Source of the DNA: Myxococcota bacterium
Lineage (GTDB): Bacteria > Myxococcota_A > UBA9042 > PHBI01 > JAWLBL01
Assembly: GCA_041687695.1 (NCBI GenBank)
Contig: JAWLBL010000002.1
Coordinates: forward strand, 318,983 to 382,982
Reading direction: 5' to 3'
Length of the DNA stretch: 64,000 nucleotides
The notes beneath the pieces were generated by a model that had not been told where the DNA came from, made no database searches, and was given only the letters and a program-made list of their open reading frames with translations. Positions 23,093 through 41,782 of this stretch are shown here, piece after piece (position 1 is the first letter of the stretch; every line of letters starts with the position of its first letter). Made by a program: the position numbers and the translations under genes.

Positions 23093-23226
23093 GGCGCCAA
23101 GGTGCACCCAAACGGGCGGCGCGTCGAGGGGGTTGCCGACGCGGGCCCGGCGTCCGAGTTCGCGGGGGGCTCGCGGGGGGCGCGCGGCGCGCGTATGATG
23201 CGCGGCCTGTGTGATGGGCGAGCGAC

Positions 23227-26318: not shown

Positions 26319-26325
26319 CCCCCGG

Positions 26326-27795
26326 TCACCCGGCGCGCGGCCGCTGGGCGGCGTAGCGGCCGACCAGCTCGACCAGCTCCTGCACGGCGACCGGCTTCTT
26401 CAGGACCCCGGCCAGGCGGCGCGGGTCGGTCTTGCGGGCGATGTTGGGGTCGGCGGTGATGACGGCGACCGGGATCTCGGCCAGCTGGTCGTTCTGGCGC
26501 AGCTCGCTCAGCAGCGCGCCGCCGTCCACCCGGGGCATCCACCAGTCGGTCAGGATGAGGGCCGGCCGCGGCTCTCGGTACAGCCACGCCAAGGCGGGCG
26601 CGCCGTCGTCGACCGCGACCGCGTGGAACCGCTCGTCGGTCAGGACCTCGAGCAGCTGCTGGCGCACGTCGGGATCGTCCTCGACGATCAGCACGACGTC
26701 GCTGCAGGCGCCGCCCAGGGCGTGGCCGATGACGCCGTGGCGCTGCGAGGGCTGGCGCCGGCGCGCCGCGTCGACCCGGGCCCGGGGGGCCGTCGCGCAG
26801 GGGCGAGGCGCGGCGACGGCGAGCCGCGAGCCGCCGAGGTCCCAGGGCGCGGTGGTCTGCAGCGCGCGCGGGCGGGTCGCGGCCAGGGCTCCGAGCCCGG
26901 ACGGGCGGGGGCGAGGGTCGGGCGGTGAGATCGCCTCGGGGCGGGCCATCCGGACGAGGCCGCGTCGCACCTCGCGCAGGGCGCGGGCGTAGCTGCGGGC
27001 GCTGCCGGGGCGGGCGTCGGGCTGGGGAGACAGGGCCGCGTGGACCGCTTGCGCGAGGCCGCTGGGCAGCGGGGGCAGGCCGGGCGGCGGCAGGGGCGCG
27101 CTGGGGTGACGCTGGGTGCGCTCGAGCAGCGCGGCCAGGGTGTCGGTGTCGAAGGGGAGGGCGCCGGCGACCAGCTCGTGGAACAGCAGGGTCGCCGAGT
27201 ACAGGTCGGAGCGCGCGTCGAGCGGCCCGCCGAAGAGCTGCTCGGGCGAGGCGTAGGCGGGGGTCCCGACGAACGAGCCGACGCGCGTCAGGCCGGGCCC
27301 CTCGTCGTCGATGGCCTTGGCGATGCCGAAGTCGAGCAGCTTGGGGCGTGGCTGGCCGGTCGCCGAGGGCACCAGCAGGACGTTGCCCGGCTTGAGGTCG
27401 CGATGCAGGACCGCCTGCGCGTGGATGGCGTCGAGCCCGTCGAGGATGCCTACCAGGATGTCGAGCGCCTCGGCCCAGGGCACCGCGCCGGTCGCGGCCA
27501 GGCGCTCGTCGAGCAGCTGGCCGTCGACGTGCTCCATCGCGATGCACGGCCGACCGTCGCCCAGCAGCCCGTAGTCCAGTAGAGCCACGACGTTCGGGTG
27601 ACGCACCCGCGCCATCAGCTCGGCCTCGCGCTCGAAGCGCGCGGCGGTCTGGGGCCGCACCTGATGGAGGACCTTCAGCGCGACGCGGTGGCCGAGCCGC
27701 GCGTGGCGCGCGCGATAGACCCGGCCCATCCCCCCCTCACCGATGAGCCCTTCGACCTCGTAGCGTCCCAGGACGGTCTCGCCCGGCTGCAGCAT
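26326..27795 (-). CDS. Ser/Thr protein kinase with C-terminal receiver domain
   Basis: Kinase motifs GEGGMG, VALK, HRDLKPGN, DFG, YASPE; receiver motifs VLIVEDD, LILTDWWMP, VITA, KKP. Confidence 0.9.
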   Translation of the reverse strand: MLQPGETVLGRYEVEGLIGEGGMGRVYRARHARLGHRVALKVLHQVRPQTAARFEREAELMARVRHPNVVALLDYGLLGDGRPCIAMEHVDGQLLDERLAATGAVPWAEALDILVGILDGLDAIHAQAVLHRDLKPGNVLLVPSATGQPRPKLLDFGIAKAIDDEGPGLTRVGSFVGTPAYASPEQLFGGPLDARSDLYSATLLFHELVAGALPFDTDTLAALLERTQRHPSAPLPPPGLPPLPSGLAQAVHAALSPQPDARPGSARSYARALREVRRGLVRMARPEAISPPDPRPRPSGLGALAATRPRALQTTAPWDLGGSRLAVAAPRPCATAPRARVDAARRRQPSQRHGVIGHALGGACSDVVLIVEDDPDVRQQLLEVLTDERFHAVAVDDGAPALAWLYREPRPALILTDWWMPRVDGGALLSELRQNDQLAEIPVAVITADPNIARKTDPRRLAGVLKKPVAVQELVELVGRYAAQRPRAG

Positions 27796-28020
27796 GTGTG
27801 CCGCCCTCGTCCAAATGCCTGCCTGAATGGAAGCGCCCCGCGCGCTTGGAGGCAGCGCCGCGCGCCGGCCGCCGAAGCGCTGGGGAACACCGCTCGAAGC
27901 GTCGTCACGTTCGTGACGGGCCGAGCCTCCGACGGTTCGCCCCCGGCGGGCAACGTCCCGGGCGTAACCGTGGCGGAGGCCCGACGACGTCACCCGCACC
28001 CGGGGCGTCGTCCCTGGACG

Positions 28021-29097
28021 TCAGCGCGGCGGCGGCGCTACGACGCCACCGGCCTGCGTGGCCGCCAGGGTGCCGCAGGCGGCGCCGATCTCCTTGCCAC
28101 CCGAGTAGCGGCGGGCGACGGGCGCAGGCAGCAGCTCGCGCAGGTGATCGCGGAAGCGGGCCAGCTCCTCCGGGCCCGGCGGCAGGTAGCGGCCGGTCGG
28201 GTCGGTGACGTCGATGAGGTCGAGCTTGATGGGCACGCCCTCGAAGGCGCGGGCGAGGGCCTCGGCGTCGTCGCGGCCGGTGTTGAAGCCGGCGATGAGG
28301 ACGTAGGCCAGCATGACCCGCTGGCGGCGCGCGGCGGCGTGCTCGCGGACGGCGTCGACCAGCGTCGGCAGCGGGTGGGTGCGCTCGACGGGCAGGAGGC
28401 GGCCGCGCTTTTCGGGGATCGCCGAGGTCAGCGAGACGACGAGGCGATAGGGCTGCCCCTCGCGCGTGTAGCGGCGCATGGCGGGGACCACGCCGACGGT
28501 CGACACGCTGATGGCCTTGGCGCCGATGGCGGGGCCGGCGGGGTCGCGCAGGATCTCGGCGGCGCGCATGACCTCGGCGTAGTTGAGCAGGGGCTCGCCC
28601 ATGCCCATGAAGACGACGCCGCGGACGGGGATCGGGCTCTCGGCGCGGACCCGCAGCACCTGATCGACGATCTCCCAGGTGCGCAGGTTCCGCGAGAAGC
28701 CCAGGTGACCGGTGGCGCAGAAGTCGCAGCCCATCGCGCAGCCGACCTGCGACGAGACGCAGACGACCGCCTTGTCGCCCAGGATGGGGATGCGCACCGC
28801 CTCGAAGCGGCCGCCCAGGGGCGAGGCGAACAGGTACTTGACGAAGCCGTCGGCGGCGACGCGGCGCTCGACCACCTCGAGCTCGGGCAGAGTCGAGCGG
28901 CGCAGGAGCGCCAGCACGGGCGAGGGGACCTGCGGGGTGGCCAGGACCTCGTCGAGCGTGCGGGCGCCGTGGGCGAAGACGCTGGCGAACAGCTTGCGGA
29001 CGCCGATGGGCGGCGGCGAGAACGGCGCGAGCCGGGCCTCGAGCTCGGCGAAGGAGAGGTCCTTGAGGTTCAGGCCGTCGGGGTCGGGGGCGTGCAT
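28021..29097 (-). CDS. RlmN/Cfr-family radical SAM RNA methyltransferase
   Basis: Motifs CVSSQVGCAMGCDFC, FMGMGEP and C-terminal AACG. Confidence 0.88.
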   Translation of the reverse strand: MHAPDPDGLNLKDLSFAELEARLAPFSPPPIGVRKLFASVFAHGARTLDEVLATPQVPSPVLALLRRSTLPELEVVERRVAADGFVKYLFASPLGGRFEAVRIPILGDKAVVCVSSQVGCAMGCDFCATGHLGFSRNLRTWEIVDQVLRVRAESPIPVRGVVFMGMGEPLLNYAEVMRAAEILRDPAGPAIGAKAISVSTVGVVPAMRRYTREGQPYRLVVSLTSAIPEKRGRLLPVERTHPLPTLVDAVREHAAARRQRVMLAYVLIAGFNTGRDDAEALARAFEGVPIKLDLIDVTDPTGRYLPPGPEELARFRDHLRELLPAPVARRYSGGKEIGAACGTLAATQAGGVVAPPPR

Positions 29098-29226
29098 CGG
29101 GGCGGACTGTAACCGGGTTGAGCGCCCGCGGGCAGCTGGGATCGTCAGGCCGCCCGATCCGGTGACCGGGCGGGCGGACCGCGGTACGGTCGGGGCGAGC
29201 ATCAACGAGCGGCGTGCGAGGTCGGC

Positions 29227-30201
29227 GTGAGCTGGCGAGACGAGCAGGCGGGCGAGCGGTCGGGCGGGCTGCGCGTCGGGGTGACCGGGGCGACCGGGGT
29301 CATCGGGCGGGCGCTGGTGGCGTTCCTCAAGAGCCACGGGCACCACGTGCAGCGGCTGGTGCGGCGGCCGAGCGCGGGCGGAACGGAGGACGTGTTCTGG
29401 GATCCCGCGCGCGGCGAGATCGACGCGCCGGCGCTCGAGGGGTTCGACGCCTTCGTGCACCTGGCGGGGGCCAACGTCGGCGAAGGGCGGTGGACCGAGG
29501 CGCGCAAGGCCGAGATCCTGGGCAGCCGGCGCGACGGGACGCGGCTGCTGGCGCGGACGCTGGCGGGGCTCGAGCGGCGGCCGAGGGTGCTGGTGTCGGC
29601 GTCCGGGGTCGGCGTGTACGGCGACCGCGGCGACGAGGTGCTCGACGAGGACAGCGCGCCGGGGCGGGGCTTCCTGGCCGAGGTGTGCAAGGTCTGGGAG
29701 GCCGAGACCGAGGCGGCGGCGCAGGCTGGGATACGAGTGGTGCGGACGCGCATGGGGGTGGTGCTGGCGCCCGAGGGCGGCGCGCTGGCGCGCATGGTGA
29801 CGCCGGTGAAGCTGGGTGTGGGCGGGCGGCTGGGGTCGGGGCGGCAGTACATGAGCTGGGTCGCGCTGGACGACGTGCTGGGCGCGATGCTGTTCGCGCT
29901 GACCCGCGAGACGCTGAGCGGGCCGGTGAACGTGGTCGCGCCCAACCCGGTGACCAACGCCGCCTTCGTCCGGACGCTGGCGGGGCTCCTGCATCGGCCG
30001 GCGATCCTGCCGGTGCCGGCGGCGGCGCTGAAGCTGGCGGTCGGCCCCGAGATGGCCGAGGAGCTGGTGCTGGCCAGCCAGCGTGTCGTGCCGCGGCGCC
30101 TCGAGGCGGCTGGCTTCCGCTTCGCGCATCCGCACCTCGAGGTCGCGCTGGCGAGGGCGCTCGGGATGCACGCGCCGGAGCCCGGATCGGCCTGGGCGTG
30201 A
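29227..30201 (+). CDS. TIGR01777/YfcH-family NAD-dependent epimerase
   Basis: Motifs GATGVIG, HLAGANV, SASGVGVYG, GFLAEVC..WE and GSGRQYMSW. Confidence 0.9.
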   Translation: MSWRDEQAGERSGGLRVGVTGATGVIGRALVAFLKSHGHHVQRLVRRPSAGGTEDVFWDPARGEIDAPALEGFDAFVHLAGANVGEGRWTEARKAEILGSRRDGTRLLARTLAGLERRPRVLVSASGVGVYGDRGDEVLDEDSAPGRGFLAEVCKVWEAETEAAAQAGIRVVRTRMGVVLAPEGGALARMVTPVKLGVGGRLGSGRQYMSWVALDDVLGAMLFALTRETLSGPVNVVAPNPVTNAAFVRTLAGLLHRPAILPVPAAALKLAVGPEMAEELVLASQRVVPRRLEAAGFRFAHPHLEVALARALGMHAPEPGSAWA

Positions 30202-30258
30202 CCCGGGCGTGACGGTCTCGCTTGTCACGGCCGCGCGCGCCTTCTACCGTGCCCGGCC

Positions 30259-31920
30259 ATGAGCAAGCGCACGCTATTGGTGATGGGGCTGGTCGGCGCG
30301 ATGGGCGCCGGCTGTGGGGACACGGGCGAGACGCCGCCGGCGGACACCGCCGTGACGGACGTGGCCGACGTCGGCAAGGGCGACGCTGCGGACGACGCCG
30401 AGCCGGACACCGCCGAGCCGGACGCCGCGGGCGACGTGGACGTCACGCCGGCGCCCGCGTTGCAGGCCGTCGAGGGCGAGCCCAACTTCGCGGTCGCCGC
30501 CGCCGGCTGGTACCGCGGCGACTTCCACTACCACACCAACTACAGCGGTGACGCCAAGGAGCAGGGCGGCGACGATCTGGCGGTGGCCATCGCCATCGCC
30601 GACGCCTACCGCGACCCGGTCTTCCTGGCGGCCAACCCGGACAAGGCGGGCAACGGCCTGGACTTCGTCGCCATCACGGACCACCGCACCGACGCGGCCT
30701 TCGCCGACCCGGACTTCACCCACGACCACCTCATCCTGGTCCCCGGCGAGGAGTACGGCGGCGGCGGACACGCCATCATCGCCGGCCTCGACCACCACAT
30801 CCCGCACGACGCGGCGGCCGGTCAGGCCCAGGACGCGCGCCACCTCGAGGCGATGGCCGAGGCGCACGCCCAGGGGGCCTTCTTCAGCATCAACCACCCG
30901 TGCCAGGAGAACATGTGGAACTGGTCGGTGGACCTGGTCGACGCCATCGAGCTCTGGAACGGGCCGTGGGCCTCGTTCTACACCGGCGCGTCCCCCGAGC
31001 ACGTCGAGGCCGAGGCGGCCGGCGCCGGCTTCATGAACCCCTTCCTGCCCGACGCGATCGCCAACGGCGGGACGGGTCACAACGACAAGGCGATGCGGTA
31101 CTGGCAGAACATGCTGACCGCCGGCCTGCACGTCGCACCCATCGGCGGCAGCGACCGCCACATGATCGTCCCGGCCGCCCTGCCGACCACCTACGTGCGC
31201 CGCCCGGCGAACCCGGCCTTCGAGGGCCTCGAGGGGCCGGCCCTGGGCTCCGACGGCATCGTCGCGGGGGTGCGTGAGGGCGGGACGTTCGTGTCGCGCT
31301 CGCCCTTCGGGGCGCAGATCGAGCTGACGGCGGTCAGCGCCGACGGGCAGGTCTTCCCGATGGGCGCCGAGCTGCCCGGCGCCGGCACCTACACGGTGCA
31401 GATGCGCGTCGGGCGCGCCGAGGGCGGCCGCCTGCGCCTGCTCAGCGGGCCGCTGAAGGCGCCGGTCGACGGGCACGTCAGCGCCGACGTGGCCGTGGTC
31501 TTCGACGAACCCATCCCCTCCGACCTCGCCAAAGGCGAGTTCACCTGGGAGGTCCCCGCCGAGGGCGCCTGGCTGCACGCGGTCGTCCTCGAGGACCTGA
31601 CGCCCGACCCGCTGCCGGAGGCCGTCCAGGAGGCGCTCGCCCACTTCCAGGTGGCCAGCGAGGGCAACGCCCTGGTGGTCATGGCCGGCGCCCTGGCGCC
31701 CCTGCTCGACATCAACATCCTGCTCGACCCCACCCTGTGCGATCCCGCGGCCTGGGACCCCTGGATGGGCCAGTGCATGCCGGTCGATCAAGGCACCCTG
31801 GCGACCTTCTACCTGCCCGATCGCATCGAGCGCCTCGTGCAGATCGTCTTCGAGGACGGCGCCGCGACCGACTGGGCCATGGGCGCCATCAGCTCGGCCT
31901 TCCTGGCGCGTCCCCAGTAG
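30259..31920 (+). CDS. PHP-domain (CehA/McbA-like) metallohydrolase lipoprotein
   Basis: Lipobox GAGC; motifs GDFHYHTNYS, AITDH, GEE, INHP, ELWNG and GGSDRH. Confidence 0.85.
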   Translation: MSKRTLLVMGLVGAMGAGCGDTGETPPADTAVTDVADVGKGDAADDAEPDTAEPDAAGDVDVTPAPALQAVEGEPNFAVAAAGWYRGDFHYHTNYSGDAKEQGGDDLAVAIAIADAYRDPVFLAANPDKAGNGLDFVAITDHRTDAAFADPDFTHDHLILVPGEEYGGGGHAIIAGLDHHIPHDAAAGQAQDARHLEAMAEAHAQGAFFSINHPCQENMWNWSVDLVDAIELWNGPWASFYTGASPEHVEAEAAGAGFMNPFLPDAIANGGTGHNDKAMRYWQNMLTAGLHVAPIGGSDRHMIVPAALPTTYVRRPANPAFEGLEGPALGSDGIVAGVREGGTFVSRSPFGAQIELTAVSADGQVFPMGAELPGAGTYTVQMRVGRAEGGRLRLLSGPLKAPVDGHVSADVAVVFDEPIPSDLAKGEFTWEVPAEGAWLHAVVLEDLTPDPLPEAVQEALAHFQVASEGNALVVMAGALAPLLDINILLDPTLCDPAAWDPWMGQCMPVDQGTLATFYLPDRIERLVQIVFEDGAATDWAMGAISSAFLARPQ

Positions 31921-31955
31921 CGGCCAGGCGGGCGGCGCTGGGCTATCCTGACCCC

Positions 31956-33911
31956 ATGCCGCCCGCCGCCCCCGTCCCCGCGCCGGCCGATCCCGCCGCG
32001 CTCCTCGCCGCCCTGGGCTCCCGCCCGCGCGTGGTCCTGGTCGGCGACGTGGGCAGCGGCAAGTCGACCCTCTCCGCCGCCCTCGCCGACGCCCTGGCCG
32101 CCTCCGGCGCCCCGGCGACCGGGATCTGCGCCGACCCCGGCCAGCCCGCCTTCGGCCCGCCCGGCGCCGCCTCCCTCGCCGCCCGCCGCGGCGGCGCCTG
32201 GCACCTCACCGCCCTCGAAGGCCTCGCCACCCTCGACGCCGGCCGCTACCGCCTCCCGCTGATCGAGGCCGTCCGCCGCCTGGCCGCCGCCACCGACGAC
32301 CAGCCCCTGGTCCTCGACGCCCCCGGCGTCGCCCGCGGCGCCCCGGCCGCCGAGCTGCTCCCCGCCCTGGTCGGTGCCGCCGGCGCCACCCACGTCCTCG
32401 CCCTCACCCAGGACGACGCCCCGCTCCCGGTCGCCGCCGAGCTCCTCGCCACCCCGGCCACCGTCCTGCACGTCCGCGCCGCCGCCGCCGCCGCCCCCCG
32501 GCCCCCCGCCGACCGCGTCACCTTCCGCACCGCCGCCTGGGACGCCTGGCTCACGGGCGCCCGTCCGCTCGCCCTGCCGCGCCTCGCCTTCGTCCTCGCC
32601 GGCCGCCCCGCCCTCGGCGACCCCGCCGCCTGGCCCGGCCGCCAGGTCGCCCTCCTCGACGCCTCCGGCGCCACGCTGACCCTCGCCCAGGTCGTCTCCC
32701 TCGCCCCCTCGCACCTCCACCTCCTCTCGCCTCCGGTCGACCCCGCCCGCGTCGCCGTCGTCCTCGTCCGCGACGCCGGCCGCGCCCCCGACGCCACGCT
32801 CGCGACCCGGCCCTGGCCCTCCCCGCGCCCGCCCCGCCCGCCCCCGCCGCGCCCCGGCGCCCGCCCCGACCTGCGCCTCGACCTCGGCCCGCCCCCCGCC
32901 GACCGCGTCACCCGCTTCGCCCCGGCCTTCCTCGGCGGCCTGTGGGACGACCCGACCCTGCACCTGCGCCACGACCTCGCGCGCCGCGGCGTCCTGTTCG
33001 ACCTGGGCGATCTGGGCGCCCTGCCGGCCAAGCTGGTCCACCAGCTCTCCGACGTCTTCGTCACCCACGCCCACATGGACCACTTCTCGGGCATGCTCGC
33101 GCTGCTCCGCCGCCGCCTCGGCGCCACCGCCCCCTGCCGCCTGTACGGCCCTCCCGGCCTCGCCGCCCGCGTCGCCGCCGCCATCGCCGCCTTCACCTGG
33201 GACCGCATCGGCGACGACGGCCCGCGCTTCCACGTCGCCGAGCTGCACGACGCCACCTTGCGCTGGACCGCCCTGCAGCCCGGCCGGCCCGCGGCCCCGC
33301 TCCCCGACACCCCGGCCCCCGCCGGCCAGCTCCTCGCCGACCGCGACCTCACCGTCCGCGCCGCGCCCCTCGACCACGCCGGCCTGCCCGTCCTCGCCTT
33401 CGCCCTGCGCGAGCGCGACCGCCACCTCGTCCGCCCCGACCGCCTCGCCGCCGCCCCGCACGCCCCCGGGCCCTGGGTCGGCGCCCTGGTGGCCGCCATG
33501 GACGCCGGCGCCGCCGACACCCTCATCCGCCTGCCCGACGGCGCCTCCGCCCCGGCCGCCCGCCTCGCCGCCGACCTCCTCACCCGCGAGCCGGGCCAGA
33601 CCGTCGCCTACGCCACCGACCTCGGCGACACCCCGAGCAACCGCGCCGCCCTCATCGCCCTCGCCCGCGGCGCCGATCTGCTGGTCTGCGAGGCGTCCTT
33701 CGCCCAGGCCGACGCCCCCCGCGCCGCCCGCACCGGCCACCTGACCGCCCGCGCCTGCGGCGAGATCGCCGCCGCCGCCGCCGTCCGCCGCCTCGCCCCC
33801 TTCCACCCCTCGCACCGCTACGAGGCCGACCCCGCGCCCCTGTACGCCGAGGTGCGCGCCGCCTTCTCCAACGCCCTCGCTCCGACCGGCCTCGACCTCA
33901 CCGCGCGCTGA
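31956..33911 (+). CDS. Fusion of a Clp1-family polynucleotide kinase and an RNase Z-type MBL hydrolase
   Basis: N-terminal half: GDVGSGKST, ADPGQ, LVLDAPG, RVTFR. C-terminal half: LFDLG, THAHMDH, LDH, PGPW, YATD, CEASF, GHLT, FHPSHRY. Confidence 0.85.
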   Translation: MPPAAPVPAPADPAALLAALGSRPRVVLVGDVGSGKSTLSAALADALAASGAPATGICADPGQPAFGPPGAASLAARRGGAWHLTALEGLATLDAGRYRLPLIEAVRRLAAATDDQPLVLDAPGVARGAPAAELLPALVGAAGATHVLALTQDDAPLPVAAELLATPATVLHVRAAAAAAPRPPADRVTFRTAAWDAWLTGARPLALPRLAFVLAGRPALGDPAAWPGRQVALLDASGATLTLAQVVSLAPSHLHLLSPPVDPARVAVVLVRDAGRAPDATLATRPWPSPRPPRPPPPRPGARPDLRLDLGPPPADRVTRFAPAFLGGLWDDPTLHLRHDLARRGVLFDLGDLGALPAKLVHQLSDVFVTHAHMDHFSGMLALLRRRLGATAPCRLYGPPGLAARVAAAIAAFTWDRIGDDGPRFHVAELHDATLRWTALQPGRPAAPLPDTPAPAGQLLADRDLTVRAAPLDHAGLPVLAFALRERDRHLVRPDRLAAAPHAPGPWVGALVAAMDAGAADTLIRLPDGASAPAARLAADLLTREPGQTVAYATDLGDTPSNRAALIALARGADLLVCEASFAQADAPRAARTGHLTARACGEIAAAAAVRRLAPFHPSHRYEADPAPLYAEVRAAFSNALAPTGLDLTAR

Positions 33912-35070
33912 CCTCGGGCGCGGCCCGCCAGCGCAGCGTGTCGCCGACCCGCTCCAGCGGCGTCTCGAACCGCGCCCGCGACCCCTGCGCCAGCGGGTCC
34001 AGGATGGCGTCCGCCTCGGCCCCCGTCGCCAGCGCAGGCGCGCCGCCGGGCCGTCGCGTCAGCAGCGGGTGGACCACCAGCGCCTCGGCCCGCCACCCCG
34101 CCGCGCCCGGCGCGCGCGCCAGCGTCAGTTCGAAGGCGGCGCCGCGCCGTCCGTCGATCCGCACCATGTCGAACACCAGGTTGCCCATGTTGTACAGGAT
34201 GATCCCGTCGCCCCAGGCCTCGACCGGCTGCAGCACGTGCGCGTGGTGGCCCAGCACGGCCGTCGCCCCTGCGTCCACCAGGGCCCGCGCCAGCTGCTGC
34301 TGCCTCCGGTTGGGCCACGCCGTGAACTCGCCGCCCCAGTGCAGGGTCACCAGCACGACCTCCGCGCCGCCCTCCCGCAGCGCCCGCACCCGCGCCGGCA
34401 GGACCTCCAGCATCTCGCTCGTCGTCAGGAACGCCACCGGCACCGACTGCCCCGGCTTGGGCGTCCCGCGGTTGCGGCGCGTCGTGGCCGCCAGCACCGC
34501 GACCCGGACGCCGGACACGTCCAGCACCAGCGGCGCCAGCGGATCGCCCCCGACCGACGCCCCTACCGCCCCGACGCCGGCCCCCTCCAGGGCCAGCAGC
34601 GTCTCGGCCAGCCCCGCCTCGCCGCAGTCCTCGGCATGGTTGTTGGCCAGCACGGCCACGTCCACGCCCGCGTCCGCCAGGGCCCCCGCGTAGCGCGTGG
34701 GCGCCCGAAAGCGCAGGTGCCGCAGCGGCAGCTTCCGCGCCCGCACCAGCTCGTCGGGATCCACGTCCGACAGCGGCGTCTCCAGGTTCACCAGGGCCAG
34801 GTCGGCGGCGCGGGTCACCGGCGCGAGCTGCTCGAACGGGCGGTCGCCTCCGCTCGGGACCAGCGTGCGAAAGACGTACCGTCCGAACATGACGTCACCG
34901 CCGGCCACCACCCGCAGCCGCGCCGCACCCGCCTCGGTCGGGACCCGCTCGCGCCCGCGCTCGACCGCCGGGGGGCGCCGCATCGGCGTCGGCACCTCGG
35001 GGAGGCTGGCGCACGCCGCGGCCATCGAGACCCCCAGCCACGCGATCACGCTCGTCCACGCCGCCCTCAT
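33898..35070 (-). CDS. CapA/PgsA-family metallophosphoesterase lipoprotein
   Basis: Motifs GGDVMFGR, NLETP, LANNH, HWG, GHHAH and YNMGN; lipobox AAAC. Start 35070 or 35082. Confidence 0.88.
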   Translation of the reverse strand: MRAAWTSVIAWLGVSMAAACASLPEVPTPMRRPPAVERGRERVPTEAGAARLRVVAGGDVMFGRYVFRTLVPSGGDRPFEQLAPVTRAADLALVNLETPLSDVDPDELVRARKLPLRHLRFRAPTRYAGALADAGVDVAVLANNHAEDCGEAGLAETLLALEGAGVGAVGASVGGDPLAPLVLDVSGVRVAVLAATTRRNRGTPKPGQSVPVAFLTTSEMLEVLPARVRALREGGAEVVLVTLHWGGEFTAWPNRRQQQLARALVDAGATAVLGHHAHVLQPVEAWGDGIILYNMGNLVFDMVRIDGRRGAAFELTLARAPGAAGWRAEALVVHPLLTRRPGGAPALATGAEADAILDPLAQGSRARFETPLERVGDTLRWRAAPEVSAR

Positions 35071-35444
35071 GGCGCGCAGCATAGGGCTGCGGCGCGCGCC
35101 GTACAGAAAGCCGCCGTCCCGCGCGCCCGTCGCCGCTTGCGGCCTCAGGATGGGCGGCGCCCCCTCGCGCGTTGAAGCTGTAACCGCCGTGAGTCGCTCG
35201 CGCCGCGTGGCCGGCGAGCCTGGCACTTCGTGTTGCGATGCGGGAGGCCCACCGTGAAACATTCCGCGTTGTCCGACCCCGAGGTGCCTCCTATCCTCGC
35301 GCCATTTCGCACAGGCCCCACGGCCGGACGGGCGGCCCTCGGCCGCTCGAGCCCTCGCCTGCCCCTGGCGCCGCCAGCGCATCGGGGCCCCGGGTCGCCC
35401 CCTGACCTCCTCAGTCGACCGCTCGACGGGTCCGCCTATCCCGA

Positions 35445-37682
35445 ATGACGCCTCGTCCCCTCCGCCTGGTGCAGCGCCTCGCCCCCCGCTTCGCGGCGCT
35501 CCTCGTGCTCGTCCTCGGGCTGTCGTCGACGCTCGCCGCCTGGATGTACGTGTCCGAGAACGAACAGGCGCGCGCCAACCGCCGCTTCTACGACGCGGTC
35601 GAGCAGGTCACCCAGACCATCGAGCACCGCCTGGCCGCCTACATCTCCGTGCTGCTGGCGACCCGCGGGTTCCTCGACGCCAGCGAGACCATCACGCGCG
35701 ACGAGTTCCAGACTTTCATCCAGAGCGTCGAGGTCGGCACGCGCTTCCCCGGCGTGCAGGGGCTGGGGTTCGCGGCCTGGATCTCCGAGGACGAGCGCCC
35801 GGCCTTCGAGGCCCGCCTCCGCGCGCAGGGCCTGCCCGACTACCGGGTCTGGCCCGAAGGCCCCCGTGCGCGCTACGCGCCCATCGCCTTCATCGAGCCG
35901 CAGGACTGGCGCAACCGCCGCGCCATGGGCTTCGACATGTACTCCGACCCGGTGCGACGCGACGCCATGGATCGCGCCCGCGAGCACGCGCTGCCGGCCG
36001 CCACCGCCCAGGTCCGCCTCGTCCAGGAGACCGACGTCGAGCCCCAGGCGGGCTTCCTCATCTACGTGCCGGTCTACACCCGCGCGGCGACCGACGTGGG
36101 CGAGCCCAGCGACCAGCGGCTGCGCGGGTTCGTCTATGCCCCCTTCCGCACCGGCGATCTCTTCGGGACGCTGCTCGGCCCCGCGGCCGCCCGCGCCGTC
36201 TCGCTGGCCATCTATGACGGGTCCCCGCACGAGGGGCAGCCCCCGCTCTTCATCAACGGCACGCAGCCCGAAACGGGCTCGCCCGTCCTCACCGCCACGC
36301 GGCACCTCGACGTCGCCGGCCGTCGCTGGACCCTGGTCTTCCGCAGCACCGAGCGGCTCACCGATCTGGGCAGCGACCTCCCCCTCTGGGTCGCCCTGGG
36401 CGGCGTCCTCATCAGCTTGCTCCTGTTCGTCATCACCCGCGCGCAGGTGCGCGCCCGCGCCGCCGCCGAGGAGTCCGACCGCCGCTCCGCGCTGCTCGCC
36501 GAGGTGGCCGGCGTGCTGTCCAGCTCGCTCGACGGCACCGAGATGCTCACCGGCGCCGCCGCCCTCGTCAGCCTGGGGACGGACGCCGCCTGCGCCGTCG
36601 AGCTGCTCGAACCGGACGGCGCGGTGCGCTCGTTCCTGGCCGTCCCCGGGCCCGATGAGCCGCGGATCGAGACCCGACGCCGGCCGGGTCACCCCGAGCA
36701 CATCGGCCTCGACCGCGCCATCACCGCCGACCGCTCACGGATGCTGGCGCACACCGATCCGGCCCTCGATCGCCTGCTGCCCGAGGACTTCCTAGCCCTG
36801 CTCGGGGCCGCCGCGCGCTCGGCCGTGCTCGTCCCGCTCCGCGCCCGGGGCCGCGCCATCGGCTCACTGAGCCTCGTCTGGACCGCGCCCCGCCGCCGCC
36901 AGCTCCCCGCCGACCTGGCCACCGCCCAGGACCTCGGCCGCCTCATCGCGGCCGCCGCCGACAACGCGCAGCTCTACCGCGACGCCCAGGACGCCATCCG
37001 CGTGCGGGACGAGTTCCTGTCGGTCGCCTCCCACGAGCTCAAGACGCCGCTGACCTCGCTGCAGCTGCAGGTCCAGAGCATCTTGCGCGCCCTCGAGCGC
37101 GGCCGCGCCGCCGCCCTGACCCCCGACGCCCTGCGCGACAAGGCCGGCCTCATCGACAGCAGCGTCCAGCGCATGAGCAACCTCATCTCGAGCCTGCTCG
37201 ACATCGCGCGCATCACCTCGGGTCGCCTCGTCCTGTCGCCGGCCGACACCGATCTCAGCGCCCTGGCCCGCGACGTGTGCGCGCGCTTCTCCGACGAGGC
37301 GCGCGCGGCCGACGTGCCGCTGGTCGCGTCCATCGAGGACGGCGTCGTCGGGCGTTGGGACGCGCAGCGCCTGGACCAGATCGTCTCGAACCTGCTGTCC
37401 AACGCCATCAAGTACGGGCCGGGGCAGCCGGTCGACGTCACGCTCGAGCGGCGCGGCGACGTGGCGCGGCTCGAGGTGCGCGACCGCGGCATCGGCGTGC
37501 CCCCCGAGGACCAGGCGCGCATCTTCGACCAGTTCGAGCGCGCCGTCTCGACCCGCAACTACGGCGGCTTCGGCCTGGGGCTGTGGATCTCGCGGCAGAT
37601 CGTCGAGGCCCACGGCGGCAGCATCGCCGTCACCAGCGAGCCCGGTCAGGGCGCGACGTTTACGGTGACGCTGCCGCTGTGA
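35445..37682 (+). CDS. CHASE-GAF sensor histidine kinase
   Basis: CHASE segment (YAPIAFIEP..RNRRAMGFDM), GAF-like middle, and SHELKTPL, NLLSNAIKY, DRGIG, GFGLGL. Confidence 0.93.
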   Translation: MTPRPLRLVQRLAPRFAALLVLVLGLSSTLAAWMYVSENEQARANRRFYDAVEQVTQTIEHRLAAYISVLLATRGFLDASETITRDEFQTFIQSVEVGTRFPGVQGLGFAAWISEDERPAFEARLRAQGLPDYRVWPEGPRARYAPIAFIEPQDWRNRRAMGFDMYSDPVRRDAMDRAREHALPAATAQVRLVQETDVEPQAGFLIYVPVYTRAATDVGEPSDQRLRGFVYAPFRTGDLFGTLLGPAAARAVSLAIYDGSPHEGQPPLFINGTQPETGSPVLTATRHLDVAGRRWTLVFRSTERLTDLGSDLPLWVALGGVLISLLLFVITRAQVRARAAAEESDRRSALLAEVAGVLSSSLDGTEMLTGAAALVSLGTDAACAVELLEPDGAVRSFLAVPGPDEPRIETRRRPGHPEHIGLDRAITADRSRMLAHTDPALDRLLPEDFLALLGAAARSAVLVPLRARGRAIGSLSLVWTAPRRRQLPADLATAQDLGRLIAAAADNAQLYRDAQDAIRVRDEFLSVASHELKTPLTSLQLQVQSILRALERGRAAALTPDALRDKAGLIDSSVQRMSNLISSLLDIARITSGRLVLSPADTDLSALARDVCARFSDEARAADVPLVASIEDGVVGRWDAQRLDQIVSNLLSNAIKYGPGQPVDVTLERRGDVARLEVRDRGIGVPPEDQARIFDQFERAVSTRNYGGFGLGLWISRQIVEAHGGSIAVTSEPGQGATFTVTLPL

Positions 37683-37716
37683 GGCGCGGTGACGCGGCCG
37701 ACGTGACCCGCTCGCC

Positions 37717-38298
37717 TCAGACGCCCGTGCGGCACAGCAGGAAGTAGTTGTTGGTCTCCTTGCCCTGGCGCACGGCGCGGCCGATGGTGACGTGGCGCGA
37801 GACCTTGCGCATGTAGTCGACCATGCGGGCGAAGACGAAGCGCTGCAGCCCCGACTCGTTCGGCTTGATCGACGGCCACCCCTCGGGCAGGCGCGCGTCG
37901 GCCGGCGGGACCTGGAAGTAGTCGATGCCGACCTCGCCGCGCTCGGGGAAGAAGCGCGCGACGAAGTAGCCGGGGCCGATGAGGGGGCGGGTCGAGCCCT
38001 CATTGTAGCCGTACAGGGCGTCGTCGCGGCCCTCGACCCGGCAGAAGCGCTTCTCGAAGACGTTGAAGATGGGCAGCGAGTTGCGGCCCGCGTGGATGAC
38101 CTGGGTCGCCGGGGCGACCTCGGGCGGGACGAAGTCGTCGAGGCTGGTCGCGCGCCCCGCGGCCAGATCCCACAGCCGGGCCTGCAGGCGGGCGCCCATC
38201 CCGCGCACCGCGGCCACGCGCGCCTCGTCGGTCATCTGGTCGAGCGTGTCGGCGAGCCGGTCGAGGTCGACGGCGTCCGGGGTCCAGGTCGTCTCCAT
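37717..38298 (-). CDS. Conserved-looking hypothetical protein (193 aa)
   Basis: RBS GGAGG, typical codon usage, and aromatic-rich globular sequence (FEKRF, GPGYF, DYMRKVS). Confidence 0.8.
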   Translation of the reverse strand: METTWTPDAVDLDRLADTLDQMTDEARVAAVRGMGARLQARLWDLAAGRATSLDDFVPPEVAPATQVIHAGRNSLPIFNVFEKRFCRVEGRDDALYGYNEGSTRPLIGPGYFVARFFPERGEVGIDYFQVPPADARLPEGWPSIKPNESGLQRFVFARMVDYMRKVSRHVTIGRAVRQGKETNNYFLLCRTGV

Positions 38299-38376: not shown

Positions 38377-39474
38377 TCAGAGCTGCAGCCGCAGCGCCAC
38401 GGTGCCGACCAGGGCCGCCGCGCTCTGCGAGCTCTTGGACGCCTGGTTGTACAGCAGCCCGCCCTGGCCGGGGTCGAAGCTGCCCGGCGCGTCGCCCAGA
38501 TCGGCCGAGATCTCGTCCTGGCTCATCACCGCGAGATCCAGCTGCGCGGTCAGCGCGACGGGGCCCATCACCAGATCCAGCCCGACGTGCGGCCGGATGG
38601 TGAAGCGCGCCGGCGGCGTCTCGTAGTGGTTGGTGCGGTCCTCGAACACCACCGGGTCCTGGTCGACCTCCTCGCCGGCGACCCGGTCGATGGTGGCCGT
38701 CGCGCGAAGGCGCGTGCCGCCCGTGACGCTGCCGTCCGCGATGACCAGACCAACGCCGGTGAACGGGCGCAGCGGCCCCCACTTCCAGGCGACGCGCAGC
38801 TCGGGCGTGAAGGCGTACAGGCTCCACGCCATGCGCGGCGCGCCCGAGAACGTGTAGGTCCCCTCGACCGTGCCCTGGTCGGTCTCGACCGTGTAGGGGC
38901 TCTCGAAGCCGGCGCCGACCTCCATGTGGCCGCCGTAGTAGGACCCGCCGACGCCGATGATGAAGGCGGGCAGGGCGCCCTTGGCCTCGTTGATGCGGAA
39001 GCGGAACTGCCCGGCGACCTGCACGAGGCCCACCGAGACGCTGATGTCCTCGCCCGCGATGTCGAGATCGGGCAGGAAGTGGACGTCCAGGCCCAGCTCG
39101 AAGCCGTGGCCGAAGCCGATGCCGGTCGTGATGCCGAACTGCGGCCACGGGAAGTTGCCGGGCAGCGCCTCCTCGAGGTTGAGCAGATCGGTCCCGCGGC
39201 CCACCTGGTTGAACTGGTTCATCAAGCCGACGCGCAGCGGGACCACGCCGAACGAGAAGCCCTGGGTGTCGTCCTGCAGATCGATGCCGGCGCCCAGGCC
39301 CGACTGCGCCATCATCGACGGCAGGTGCTGCGCCAGCCAGATGGGCGTGTTGACCGTCAGGGCCGTCACGTCGTTGGTCAGCCGATCGAGGATGTCGGCG
39401 CTCTGGGCCAGGGCGGGCCCGGTCGGGGCGGCGGCGAGGCCCAGCGTGAGCAGGGCGGCGAGGCGGCTACGCAT
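38377..39474 (-). CDS. Secreted protein, probable outer-membrane beta-barrel
   Basis: Signal peptide ALA-Q, amphipathic beta strands and C-terminal VALRLQL. Confidence 0.75.
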   Translation of the reverse strand: MRSRLAALLTLGLAAAPTGPALAQSADILDRLTNDVTALTVNTPIWLAQHLPSMMAQSGLGAGIDLQDDTQGFSFGVVPLRVGLMNQFNQVGRGTDLLNLEEALPGNFPWPQFGITTGIGFGHGFELGLDVHFLPDLDIAGEDISVSVGLVQVAGQFRFRINEAKGALPAFIIGVGGSYYGGHMEVGAGFESPYTVETDQGTVEGTYTFSGAPRMAWSLYAFTPELRVAWKWGPLRPFTGVGLVIADGSVTGGTRLRATATIDRVAGEEVDQDPVVFEDRTNHYETPPARFTIRPHVGLDLVMGPVALTAQLDLAVMSQDEISADLGDAPGSFDPGQGGLLYNQASKSSQSAAALVGTVALRLQL

Positions 39475-39540: not shown

Positions 39541-41727
39541 TCACAGCCGCAGCTCGAGGCCGCCCGTCAGGCTCCAGCCGCGCCCGACGGCCGCCGCGCC
39601 CTCGCGCTCGAAGCCCTCGCGCCACCACAGCGCGCGCGCCAGCAGCCCCAGCGGCCCCAGCGCCGCCGTCAACATCGCCCGGTGCTCGAGCCGCGACACG
39701 TCCCGCGCCCGCTCGCTCAGCACCAGCGCCGCCGGCGCCAGCGCGTAGTCCAGCTCGAAGCGCAGCGCCCCGCCCGACGCGAAGGCCGCCCGCAGCCCGA
39801 CCAGCGGCGACAGCCGCAGCGCCTCGACGTCCACGCTGGCCCCGCCCGTGGCCAGCTCGCCCGACACGTGCAGCGCCGCCATCCCCAGCAGCGGGTCGTT
39901 CCACGTCGCGAAGCGCACTGGCACGCCCAGGCGCGCCTGCAGATCGACCCCGACCGGCCCGCCGCCGTCCGGCTGCACCACCCCCAGCCCCAGCTGGTAG
40001 TCCAGCCCGACCTGCGCGCCCAGCCCGCCCGGCCCATCCCACACGCGGTCCCGCCCGACCGCCCCGCCCCGCAGGTGCACGCCGTAGGCCCACCAGCCAC
40101 CCGCCGCCGCGCCGCCCGGCCCCTCGGCCAGCGCGCCCACCGTCGCCCCGCGGGTGCCGACCAGGCCCAGCGCCGTGTCGTGCCCCAGGGCGATGGCGCT
40201 CGGGTTCGGCCCTTCCGTCTCCCGCGGGGTCCGCAGCGGCGCCAGCGCGCTCAGGGCCTCGGCCGCCGCCGCGTCGGGCGCGGGCAGCGGCGGGTCCGCG
40301 GGCACGGCCAGGGCCTGCGGCGTGTGCCGATCCCCGCGCACGGCCCGCTCCAGCTCGGCCGGCGTCAGCCCGTAGCGCCTGTGGAACGCCGCGCCCGCGG
40401 CCGCCGGCACGTACCCGAGCAGCCGCAGGGCCAGCACGAAGTGGTGCTCGGCCTCGAACGGCCGGGCCTCGGCGCCCGCCGAGAAGGCCCGCACCAGGTG
40501 CTCCTTGCCCCACCAGGTCGTCACGTCGCGGGCGCGCGCCTGCACCGCCTCGCGGGCCCGCCCGACCGCCTCGGCGCGCAGGGCCCCGGGCGAGGCCGTC
40601 CCGTCGAAGGCCCGCTCGCCGTGCGGCGTCTTCCAGGCGCGGTCCTCGCGCTCGAGCTCGACCTCGACGGGCAGCGTCAGGCTCTGGTCGCCCCAGGTCA
40701 GCACCGCCCGTCCGATCAGCGCGTAGCTGACCCGGACGTGCTGCACGTCGCGCTGGCCGGACCGCTCGACCAGCCGGTGGCGGGTCACCTTCAGCACCTC
40801 GTGCTTGGGCTGGCCGGCCTTGTCGGTCCCCACCTGGACCTTCTCCTCGGCCACGAACGGCTCGCGCTCCTGGTAGGTGTAGGCCTCCGAGGTCGTCCAG
40901 CGCTCCTCGCGGGGCGCGCAGCGGCGCAGCGTCAACCGCAGCGCGACCGGCAGCCCCGGGCCCCGAGGCAGGGCGTCGGCCAGCGCGCGCCCCTCGGCGG
41001 CGCAGGGGCCCTCGGCGGTCACCTGCCAGCTCAGGCGCGTGGCGGCCTCGACCTCGCGCCGCGTGGCCTCGAGCGCGGCGCCCGGGTCGGCGCCGAAGCG
41101 GGTGGCCAGTGACAGGTGCAGCAGCGCGGCCGCCGGGTGGGCCGAGGCGCGGTAGGCCAGGCTCAGGTGGTGGCGGGCGGCGGCCTCGGCGGCCTCGGCC
41201 AGGCGGCGCAGGACCGGGTGGTCGGCGGGGACGGCCGGAGCGTCCGGCGACCGGAAGGGCGAGGCGATGCGCTCGGCGCGGGCCAGCGCGCGCGCGTAGG
41301 CCGTCGGGTCGAGCAGGCGGGCGACCTCGGGCCACAGGGCCTCGGCCGCTTCGGTCATCGCGCTGAGGACCGCCGCCTCGGCGCGGGGGCTGGCCTGCCA
41401 CGCGGCGACCTGCCGCCGCAGGCTGGCCAGCTCGGCCAGGGCGGCCTCGGCCTCGCCGCCGGCGACGCGGGCCCGGGCGTGGGTCAGGCGCTGCTCGACC
41501 AGGGCCTCGGCGGCGCGGGCCAGGCGCTCGCGCAGCGCGGCGCCGGCCTCGGAGCGTGGCGGCACCTCGCGATCGAGGGCGGCGCGGTAGTTCGACACGG
41601 CGTGATCCCAGCGGCCGGCGGCGGCGTGGGCGTCGGCGGCGCGGCCGTACCACGAGGCCTGGCAACCCAGGGCGGCCCAAGCGGCGAGGAGCACGGCGAT
41701 CGGGGCGAGCGCGAGGCGTCGGTGCAC
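39541..41727 (-). CDS. Lipoprotein with helical N-terminus and beta-barrel-like C-terminus
   Basis: Lipobox ALGC, TPR-like start, and about 230 C-terminal aa of alternating strands ending GGLELRL. Confidence 0.65.
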   Translation of the reverse strand: MHRRLALAPIAVLLAAWAALGCQASWYGRAADAHAAAGRWDHAVSNYRAALDREVPPRSEAGAALRERLARAAEALVEQRLTHARARVAGGEAEAALAELASLRRQVAAWQASPRAEAAVLSAMTEAAEALWPEVARLLDPTAYARALARAERIASPFRSPDAPAVPADHPVLRRLAEAAEAAARHHLSLAYRASAHPAAALLHLSLATRFGADPGAALEATRREVEAATRLSWQVTAEGPCAAEGRALADALPRGPGLPVALRLTLRRCAPREERWTTSEAYTYQEREPFVAEEKVQVGTDKAGQPKHEVLKVTRHRLVERSGQRDVQHVRVSYALIGRAVLTWGDQSLTLPVEVELEREDRAWKTPHGERAFDGTASPGALRAEAVGRAREAVQARARDVTTWWGKEHLVRAFSAGAEARPFEAEHHFVLALRLLGYVPAAAGAAFHRRYGLTPAELERAVRGDRHTPQALAVPADPPLPAPDAAAAEALSALAPLRTPRETEGPNPSAIALGHDTALGLVGTRGATVGALAEGPGGAAAGGWWAYGVHLRGGAVGRDRVWDGPGGLGAQVGLDYQLGLGVVQPDGGGPVGVDLQARLGVPVRFATWNDPLLGMAALHVSGELATGGASVDVEALRLSPLVGLRAAFASGGALRFELDYALAPAALVLSERARDVSRLEHRAMLTAALGPLGLLARALWWREGFEREGAAAVGRGWSLTGGLELRL

Positions 41728-41782
41728 GGCCGCGGAGGGTAGCCGGTCGCGGGGGGCGATGCACGCGCGGCGGCGCGTCCGG

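Follow-up and report, generated by a model that had tools for sequence, protein, structure and literature searches.

A recurrent bacterial fusion of a Clp1-type polynucleotide kinase with an RNase Z-type metallo-beta-lactamase, predicted to act on RNA ends

A stretch of 64,000 nucleotides from the genome of a Myxococcota bacterium (assembly GCA_041687695.1, contig JAWLBL010000002.1, positions 318,983 to 382,982; hereafter the window) carries a gene for a 651-residue protein that joins two domains in one chain. By profile score and predicted fold, its N-terminal half is a Clp1-type polynucleotide kinase and its C-terminal half an RNase Z-type metallo-beta-lactamase (MBL) with the flexible arm of that family, catalysis by the one and nuclease activity of the other being predicted. 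The fusion is a real, conserved and uncharacterised enzyme. It is recurrent but rare, and its gene is accessory, with no RNA ligase linked to it. The reading that we favour, for which the chances appear evenly balanced, is that of a stand-alone accessory bifunctional enzyme that would act as a dimer and independently of a ligase, turning the ends of tRNA or other RNA into 5'-phosphate (5'-P) and 3'-OH ends for CCA re-addition or for decay.

The gene lies at window positions 31956-33911 on the forward strand, where translation gives 651 residues plus a stop codon without internal stop. The GC content of the window is 70-79%, peaking at 81% across this stretch, so that long chance open reading frames (ORFs) are to be expected around the gene. 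GC by codon position in the frame is 0.845/0.612/0.985, which is the pattern of the other genes in the window, and the opposite-strand ORFs at 31809-33815 and 32246-33583 matched no Pfam family. As the codon-position GC is gene-like, the family matches fall in this frame alone and homologs span its start, the frame is taken as real and a wrong frame was ruled out. ATG 31956 is the likely start codon, because an alternative in-frame GTG at 31737 would run into the upstream gene, which ends at 31920, and because the alignments of homologs from genomic loci begin at fusion residue 1-33. The protein looks soluble and is of modest size. An AlphaFold2 model of the whole chain, built on an alignment of 26 family members, has a mean predicted local distance difference test (pLDDT) value of 87.6. 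The two halves are separated by a linker that is rich in proline (39% over residues 285-320, with the Pro-rich stretch at 32808-32870).

The Pfam family CLP1_P (PF16575) matches residues 30-198 with 44.7 bits against a cut-off of 26.6, covering profile positions 1-185 of 188, and in the host genome the fusion gene alone scores above this cut-off. Superposition of model residues 8-280 against residues 88-422 of human CLP1 from the TSEN/pre-tRNA complex revealed a Z score of 27.3 and a root mean square deviation of 2.8 Å over 262 aligned residues. The same segment gave Z scores of 27.1 with C. elegans Clp1 bound to RNA and an ATP analogue and 23.1 with Grc3 of the Las1-Grc3 complex, and a Foldseek search with the model likewise returned Clp1 and RNase Z folds. 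Sequence-profile mapping onto Clp1 yielded mostly generic P-loop matches, those to Grc3 and Clp1 extending beyond the P-loop. Since the model aligns to the Clp1 chains only from residue 82-88 on, the N-terminal half corresponds to the kinase domain and the C-terminal domain of Clp1, without the eukaryotic N-terminal domain.

Conservation of individual residues was read from an alignment of 26 fusion proteins with 39-50% identity to the window protein, together with an N-terminal alignment, and motif frequencies were counted over 62 full-length homologs. Pillon et al. 2018 (PMC5900568) define four motifs of Clp1 and Grc3, namely the P-loop GxxxxGK[T/S], Walker B, clasp and lid. The fusion has the P-loop, the Walker-B Asp and the lid arginines, whereas the Walker-B Gln is variable and the clasp Trp is never found. 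Among the 26 fusion proteins, G30 and G33 of the P-loop are invariant and K36 is kept at 90% or more, and W195, G216, W226, R272 and D273 are invariant in the beta-rich region that follows the kinase domain and at its edge. Ts-Clp1, a Clp1 protein from a bacterium, has been described as a proven RNA 5'-kinase (PMC6777427).

The C-terminal half matches Pfam Lactamase_B_2 over residues 360-617 with 59.6 bits (cut-off 27). Its best NCBIfam model is PRK02126, 'ribonuclease Z', with 262.4 bits over profile positions 5-338 of 345, and it matches E. coli RNase Z (2cbn) with an E value of 1.2e-11. Superposition of residues 321-644 gave a Z score of 27.8 against B. subtilis RNase Z 1y44 (244 aligned residues), 27.5-27.6 against the tRNA-bound B. 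subtilis enzyme in 2fk6 and 4gcw (280 aligned residues) and 26.6 against E. coli ZiPD. Residues 448-549 align by HMMER to residues 116-207 of E. coli RNase Z, including its PPGP motif, and thus mark the flexible arm, whose motif was found by pattern in 49 of the 62 homologs; one homolog (P0057) has no arm. In RNase Z this arm binds the tRNA elbow. In the alignment, the CEASF and GHLT motifs correspond to hEAt and gHst of the E. coli and B. subtilis enzymes, and HPSHRY to tHvSsRY of RNase Z. In addition to the invariant D555, D558 is kept at 90% or more and is aligned by HMMER to the GDT of E. coli RNase Z; both aspartates are candidate metal ligands. Because the catalytic residues of the two halves are kept at 39-50% identity, we argue that both sites are under selection.

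A homodimer of the MBL half is predicted with an ipSAE score of 0.81 in three runs, the best control reaching 0.20. In calibration, 20 of 30 proteins solved as same-chain pairs reached the mark, compared with 1 of 23 solved as single chains. The predicted interface is formed by residues 371-385, 404-417 and 475-477, with a contact agreement of 100% and a partner pLDDT of at least 89; as solved RNase Z dimers exist, the prediction may only reflect likeness to them. The first-pass annotation of this DNA, made from the sequence alone, had described one uninterrupted 651-residue frame with a Clp1 domain, a Pro-rich linker and an RNase Z-family MBL domain. Translation confirms the frame, all motifs that it listed lie at the positions given, and the two domain calls are borne out by Pfam scores above cut-off and by superpositions at Z scores of about 27. 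The features are collected in Table 1.

Table 1. Features of the fusion gene and its neighbours (window coordinates).
Feature	Position	Strand	Basis and conservation
Whole gene, 651 aa + stop: Clp1-type kinase, linker, RNase Z-type MBL	31956..33911	+	Open frame, GC at third codon positions (GC3) 0.985, both Pfam domains above cut-off, AlphaFold2 model
P-loop polynucleotide-kinase domain (predicted), about residues 8-198	31977..32549	+	CLP1_P match and fold superposition
P-loop GDVGSGKST (G30...G35-K36-S37)	32043..32069	+	GxxxxGK[ST] in 59/62 full-length homologs
Walker B-like D60-P-G-Q63	32133..32144	+	D60, P61, G62 invariant; DPG in 61/62 homologs
Clasp-position motif D121-A-P-G124, then V125	32316..32327	+	D121, P123, G124 invariant
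Lid arginines R187, R191 (RVTFR)	32514..32528	+	Invariant in both alignments (26 fusion proteins; N-terminal half)
Beta-rich domain, about residues 199-280, matching Clp1 C-terminal domain	32550..32795	+	Inside the Clp1 superposition, to chain residue 422/423
Pro-rich flexible linker, about residues 285-317	32808..32906	+	pLDDT <50 at 290-302 and 312-317; length and sequence vary among homologs
RNase Z-type MBL domain (predicted), residues 321-644	32916..33887	+	Fold, PRK02126, HMMER match to 2cbn
Metal-binding motif H371-A-H373-M-D375-H376 (HAHMDH)	33066..33083	+	Invariant; HxHxDH in 62/62 homologs
L-D-H474, motif III histidine	33369..33377	+	H474 invariant
Flexible-arm (exosite) region with P504-G-P-W507 (PGPW 33465-33476), boundaries approximate	33414..33578	+	Alignment to E. 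coli RNase Z
Y-A-T-D555, strand-end Asp, candidate bridging ligand	33609..33620	+	D555 invariant
C-E579-A-S-F (33687-33701) and G-H595-L-T (33735-33746)	33687..33746	+	E579, H595-L-T invariant; HLT in 60/62
H617-P-S-H-R-Y, motif V histidine	33804..33821	+	H617, S619, R621 invariant; HxSxR in 60/62
RlmN-type methyltransferase	28021-29112	-	Radical-SAM rRNA/tRNA enzyme; PRK14470 492 bits, cut-off 441
YfcH-family oxidoreductase	29227-30201	+	
CehA/McbA-family (PHP-like) metallohydrolase, 553 aa	30259-31920	+	35 nt separate its end from the fusion gene downstream; 116 bits (cut-off 80)
PGA_cap protein	33898-35382	-	

The fusion is found well beyond this genome. Both Pfam domains are present in 61 of 66 other protein clusters, which carry only general names at source ('MBL fold metallo-hydrolase', 'Clp1/GlmU family protein', 'ribonuclease BN/Z'). 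A search of species-representative genomes returned 379 stretches that code for a relative; the query patterns came from the MBL half, so that some of them may lack the kinase, and locus-level counts were taken on the best 80. At 71 of these 80 loci the match begins no later than residue 33 and reaches at least residue 632. An assembly artefact was thus ruled out, and absence of the fusion from other genomes, which the first-pass annotation had named as grounds for abandoning its proposal, is the opposite of what was observed. The loci are mostly from Gammaproteobacteria (Halomonas, Billgrantia, Chromatiales, Ectothiorhodospiraceae, methanotrophs, Sedimenticola, Photobacterium, Motiliproteus), and a few fusion-bearing metagenome-assembled genomes (MAGs) carry the label Desulfobia, Desulfobacteraceae, Nitrospiraceae or Chloroflexia. 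A search with the N-terminal 290 residues in 1.84 billion representatives gave only 355 matches at E <= 0.001. Among the best 149 of these, 54 proteins have at least 590 residues, all 54 with HxHxDH, and 48 of 260-399 residues are cut fusions together with more distant stand-alone kinases.

Five matches, some of them cut, came from a search for shorter forms, and a search for longer forms, for example with a fused ligase, had no match, though this is weak evidence. Three of the 80 loci, L005 (5'-truncated), L039 and L052, hold genuine MBL-only forms, and five others (L001, L015, L026, L053 and L056) run off the end of a contig. L003, a further candidate, was rejected, as 100 N directly precede its MBL half in this MAG chromosome (L003:8500-10100) and its product is 99.7% identical to a fusion protein. 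In a quick maximum-likelihood tree of the MBL domains, which was not run to completion, L005 and L039 fall inside fusion clades, the plasmid-borne stand-alone forms of alphaproteobacteria make up a separate clade (support of 98 in the SH-like approximate likelihood ratio test, SH-aLRT), and the window protein, the composition of which is atypical, groups with three metagenome proteins (SH-aLRT 91).

The host genome of 7.97 Mb is 99% complete and has 60 predicted tRNA genes, 28 of them without encoded CCA, some calls of odd length being doubtful; with so many CCA-less genes, an RNase Z-type activity should be needed. Several ARAGORN calls of 89-100 nt without CCA (e.g. Arg-CCG, Gly-CCC, Gly-GCC) may be either false or intron-bearing. 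The fusion is the best match to the RNase Z equivalog model TIGR02651 in the host, where nothing passes the cut-off, and it is likewise the best RNase Z-like gene in all five other fusion genomes tested, from four genera. The host also encodes a 287-residue RNase Z-like MBL with a GP stretch on contig C6 (249287-250147, reverse strand; also L083:1396-2259, reverse strand), which scores 64 bits on the same model against a cut-off of 293. Of 40 relatives from the same order or class, 33 have this second gene (33-66% identity) and none has the fusion. On these counts, the enzyme native to the lineage is more likely the product of the C6 gene, and the fusion an acquired extra. As the probable tRNase Z of the lineage, the C6 protein lies at a great distance from the curated model, and its annotation would say no more than generic MBL hydrolase. 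The GC3 of the fusion gene matches that of the host, which suggests that its acquisition was not recent.

Among 61 Halomonadaceae genomes, 16 carry a near-canonical RNase Z of about 330 residues (251-283 bits) and seven a fusion-type match (79-106 bits, open frame of at least 513 residues), the latter classed by score and frame length, with one genome (G001) checked directly. No genome has both forms and 38 have neither. A zero overlap of 7 and 16 among 61 arises by chance about once in ten, and related genomes are not independent. Taken together with the 0 of 40 relatives, the gene counts indicate that the fusion gene is dispensable and sporadic, an accessory gene.

The genes around the fusion are not conserved beyond close relatives. 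When all ORFs of at least 90 residues in the 80 loci were clustered by BLAST, recurring neighbours were confined to about 26 closely related Halomonadaceae; outside this family there was no conserved neighbour, the most frequent being present, at varying distances, in 8 of about 54 loci. None of the window neighbours of the fusion (RlmN-type, YfcH, CehA/McbA and PGA_cap genes) recurs at the other loci. A Pfam search with 86 of the 147 neighbour ORFs selected at 20 diverse loci returned mixed, unrelated housekeeping genes. The first-pass annotation had suggested a survey for RNA-repair partners beside homologs; at these 20 loci there was no RNA ligase within 3 kb, one RtcA RNA 3'-phosphate cyclase gene divergent beside the fusion (L016:8388-9413, reverse strand) and one pair of HicB-like and HigB-like toxin-antitoxin genes just upstream of it (L008:7410-9309, reverse strand), each a single case. 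A DNA-repair gene recurring beside the fusion was found neither in the 80-locus clustering nor by Pfam at the 20 loci. None of 50,697 phage records holds the fusion, and 72,556 plasmid records contained no full-length fusion, only matches to the MBL half with 30-41% identity. PADLOC gave weak P-loop matches only, and a defence system was rejected. A tRNA gene was predicted within 10 kb of the fusion at 8 of 53 loci, seven lying at least 2.1 kb away and the eighth call falling inside the coding sequence.

The host genome encodes no ligase of family PF09414. RtcB is encoded there at three loci, and next to one of these lies an RtcA gene. In the Halomonadaceae, a PF09414 ligase at 90 bits or more was found in 1 of 7 fusion genomes and in 4 of 54 others, and the fusion does not co-occur with these ligases. 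RtcB joins 3'-phosphate or cyclic-phosphate ends to 5'-OH ends, not 5'-P to 3'-OH ends. Because RtcB needs unhealed ends, a fusion that makes 5'-P and 3'-OH ends would take RNAs out of its reach.

We propose that the substrate of the fusion would most likely be tRNA or a tRNA-like RNA. The RNase Z-type domain would dimerise, with its arm on the tRNA elbow, and its two-metal site would either remove a 3' trailer or an aberrant extension, or hydrolyse a 2',3'-cyclic phosphate to leave 3'-OH. The two Clp1-type kinases, each on a flexible linker of about 30 residues, would use ATP to convert an RNA 5'-OH into a 5'-phosphate. Turning 5'-OH into 5'-P and a cyclic phosphate or trailer into 3'-OH would be the most economical reading of the fusion's chemistry. 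Having no dedicated ligase, the enzyme would pass its ends to the CCA-adding enzyme for tRNA recycling, as ELAC1 and TMS5 do, or, alternatively, to clearance by the 5'-P- and 3'-OH-dependent decay machinery; these ligase-independent fates are favoured because no ligase is linked to the fusion. The short forms of RNase Z (ELAC1 and rice TMS5) have been described as stripping 2',3'-cyclic phosphate from CCA-less tRNA and thereby enabling CCA re-addition (10.64898/2026.10.07.757187, PMC11897441, 10.1101/2021.08.05.455008).

Several observations weigh against this proposal. In the kinase half, a Gln follows the Walker-B DPG in only 13 of 61 homologs (Q63 is present in the window protein). The clasp position deviates from [T/S/L]xGW, none of 62 homologs having the Trp and 52 of 60 having Val there. 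As the clasp Trp is missing, kinase activity should not be taken for granted; one possible account of the change is that the RNase Z half has taken on RNA recognition. In the MBL half, the scores stay under the cut-offs of both NCBIfam models (262.4 against 315 for PRK02126 and 94.5 against 292.95 for TIGR02651). The MBL-only forms L005, L039 and L052 nest among or beside fusions, and MBL-only forms within fusion clades mean that the kinase can be lost. Cleavage by RNase Z leaves a 5'-P trailer, so that the nuclease itself would make no substrate for the kinase, and we know of no bacterial process that leaves a 5'-OH adjoining the tRNA 3' end. A break in the anticodon loop is out of reach of the MBL site when tRNA is bound in the mode canonical for RNase Z. 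Finally, the loci, phage and plasmid records surveyed gave no neighbourhood, phage or plasmid link to RNA damage.

The missing clasp Trp would fit another role, in which the MBL half is an RNase Z for CCA-less pre-tRNAs in ordinary or back-up tRNA 3'-end maturation and the P-loop half a regulatory or assembly ATPase. Yeast Clp1 is such a non-kinase ATPase. The 28 of 60 CCA-less tRNA genes of the host point in the same direction, as do the rank of the fusion as best, though below-cut-off, TIGR02651 match there and its rank in 5 of 5 other fusion genomes, and also the Halomonadaceae, where none of the seven with the fusion carries the near-canonical RNase Z found in 16 others. However, that zero overlap is within reach of chance in related genomes, and the 38 of 61 genomes with neither form mean that RNase Z is dispensable in this family. 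The host moreover keeps the separate 287-residue RNase Z-like gene, which is shared by 33 of 40 relatives, none of which has the fusion, and the invariant Walker-B Asp and lid arginines argue for catalysis over mere nucleotide binding. We consider a role in maturation unlikely.

Healing of RNA for sealing, in which a toxin-made break would be converted to 5'-P and 3'-OH ends and closed by an ATP-dependent RNA ligase encoded elsewhere, as in Pnkp/Hen1-Rnl and HD-Pnk/LIG, is what the first-pass annotation had in mind when it likened the protein to Pnkp. A kinase and a phosphoesterase in one chain are indeed the layout of Pnkp, HD-Pnk and the healing domains of Trl1, as described in PMC6097658; bacterial tRNA halves with cyclic-phosphate ends accumulate under stress (PMC7790460), and the single RtcA and HigB/HicB loci could be read in this sense. 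Against this, the known healing enzymes cluster with their ligases in the account of PMC6097658, whereas no ligase lay within 3 kb of the fusion at the 20 loci, no neighbour is conserved outside the Halomonadaceae, and the longer form with a fused ligase was not found, the last being weak evidence. PF09414 ligases do not co-occur with the fusion (1 of 7 against 4 of 54 genomes) and are absent from the host, whose sealing genes, RtcB and RtcA, belong to a pathway acting on unhealed ends. The architecture proposed by the first-pass annotation stands, a Clp1-type kinase and an RNase Z-type MBL sharing one chain and each keeping its conserved centre; the purpose that it assigned, the making of ligatable ends, found no support, and we regard it as quite improbable. 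Processing of DNA ends would make the fusion a PNKP-like healer of breaks with 5'-OH and blocked 3' ends, and HD-Pnk has been described as a DNA/RNA end-healing enzyme. Since the MBL half is nearest to tRNA-bound RNase Z structures and keeps the arm, and no DNA-repair gene recurs beside the fusion, this role appears very improbable.

Returning to the stand-alone bifunctional enzyme, a more specific and less likely version would make it a ligase-independent bacterial enzyme for tRNA recycling or triage, and the first covalent nuclease-kinase machine of prokaryotes. The RNase Z dimer would dock a damaged tRNA by its elbow and clear the blocked 3' end, and the tethered kinases would phosphorylate the 5'-OH of a nick or fragment. 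The outcome would be CCA re-addition or 5'-P-dependent decay, the 5'-P keeping the tRNA from RtcB. If true, such an enzyme would be the bacterial counterpart of ELAC1-type tRNA repair, joined with the logic of TSEN-CLP1 and Las1-Grc3.

In the window, the CehA/McbA-family gene may be co-transcribed with the fusion gene, to judge from their spacing; the nearest Atlas clusters of its protein are mostly from Myxococcota. A radical-SAM gene near the fusion at L047 was considered as a shared neighbour and rejected, because it encodes an AmmeMemoRadiSam enzyme and not RlmN; its likeness to the RlmN-type gene of the window is a coincidence. Genes for protein-L-isoaspartate O-methyltransferase lie within about 3 kb of the fusion, or of its stand-alone relative, at three unrelated loci (L047:5522-6223, L014:12456-13115 and L105:2917-3561), which may be chance. 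No Rfam family was found at E <= 0.1 in window positions 26000-38000. Signalling genes at 24822-27999 and 35445-37682 encode an adenylate/guanylate cyclase, a Ser/Thr kinase-receiver fusion and a CHASE-GAF histidine kinase. Three window ORFs, 38377-39474 (reverse), 39541-42003 (reverse) and 23215-24966 (forward), of 365, 820 and 583 residues with GC3 of 0.95-0.97, matched no Pfam family at E <= 0.001, and the GC content of 40001-42000 reaches 79%.

We found no description of a Clp1-RNase Z or Clp1-MBL fusion in the literature covered, which did not extend to Burroughs & Aravind 2016 (PMC5062991), the survey likeliest to list it; the available text of the Clp1 survey by Saito et al. 2019 (PMC6777427) makes no mention of a fusion with a lactamase or RNase Z. 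As databases tag both domains, the architecture is visible to anyone looking. Both domain families and the idea of bifunctional healing are already known; what appears to be new is a Clp1 kinase and an RNase Z in one chain, with no ligase.

The closest comparisons place the fusion between several known systems. With Clp1, Grc3 and Nol9, including Ts-Clp1, it has in common the CLP1_P domain, the P-loop, the Walker-B Asp, the lid arginines and the fold of the kinase and C-terminal domains, but it has no eukaryotic N-terminal domain, and its clasp Trp is replaced, mostly by Val. As in Clp1-TSEN and Grc3-Las1, a kinase is coupled to an RNA nuclease; unlike in those complexes, kinase and nuclease are covalently joined, and the nuclease is a predicted metal-dependent RNase Z where theirs is of the HEPN type or a splicing endonuclease. 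From the short RNase Z forms (RNase Z, ELAC1, TMS5), with which it shares fold, HxHxDH, the later His, Asp and Glu motifs, the arm and the predicted homodimer, the fusion differs in lying far below the TIGR02651 cut-off and nearest to PRK02126, in its N-terminal kinase and in its sporadic, accessory distribution. Stand-alone PRK02126-type 'ribonuclease Z' proteins, 30-41% identical in the MBL, are likewise lone genes in mixed contexts but have no kinase and form the separate clade of the quick tree. One relative of the MBL half, on a Limimaricola variabilis plasmid (L105:5956-7605), is annotated as a 549-residue 'GXWXG domain-containing protein'; as the GXWXG domain lies at its C-terminus, this RNase Z subfamily also occurs with a different fused domain.

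Pnkp, Runella HD-Pnk and Trl1 KIN-CPD combine a 5'-kinase with a 2',3'-phosphoesterase in one chain and yield 5'-P and 3'-OH ends, and the HD-Pnk gene overlaps that of its ligase, as described in PMC6097658; in the fusion both activities are predicted, on other folds (a Clp1-type kinase and an MBL phosphoesterase) and without a linked ligase. If the predicted activities are real, the fusion would open a route into the little-studied bacterial handling of RNAs with 5'-OH and cyclic-phosphate ends. Bacteria would then have, as a single chain, the pairing of Clp1 kinase and RNA nuclease known to date from the eukaryotic complexes TSEN-CLP1 and Las1-Grc3, and the fusion would be a third, structurally unrelated bacterial design for RNA end healing beside Pnkp and HD-Pnk, working without a ligase where those two travel with one.

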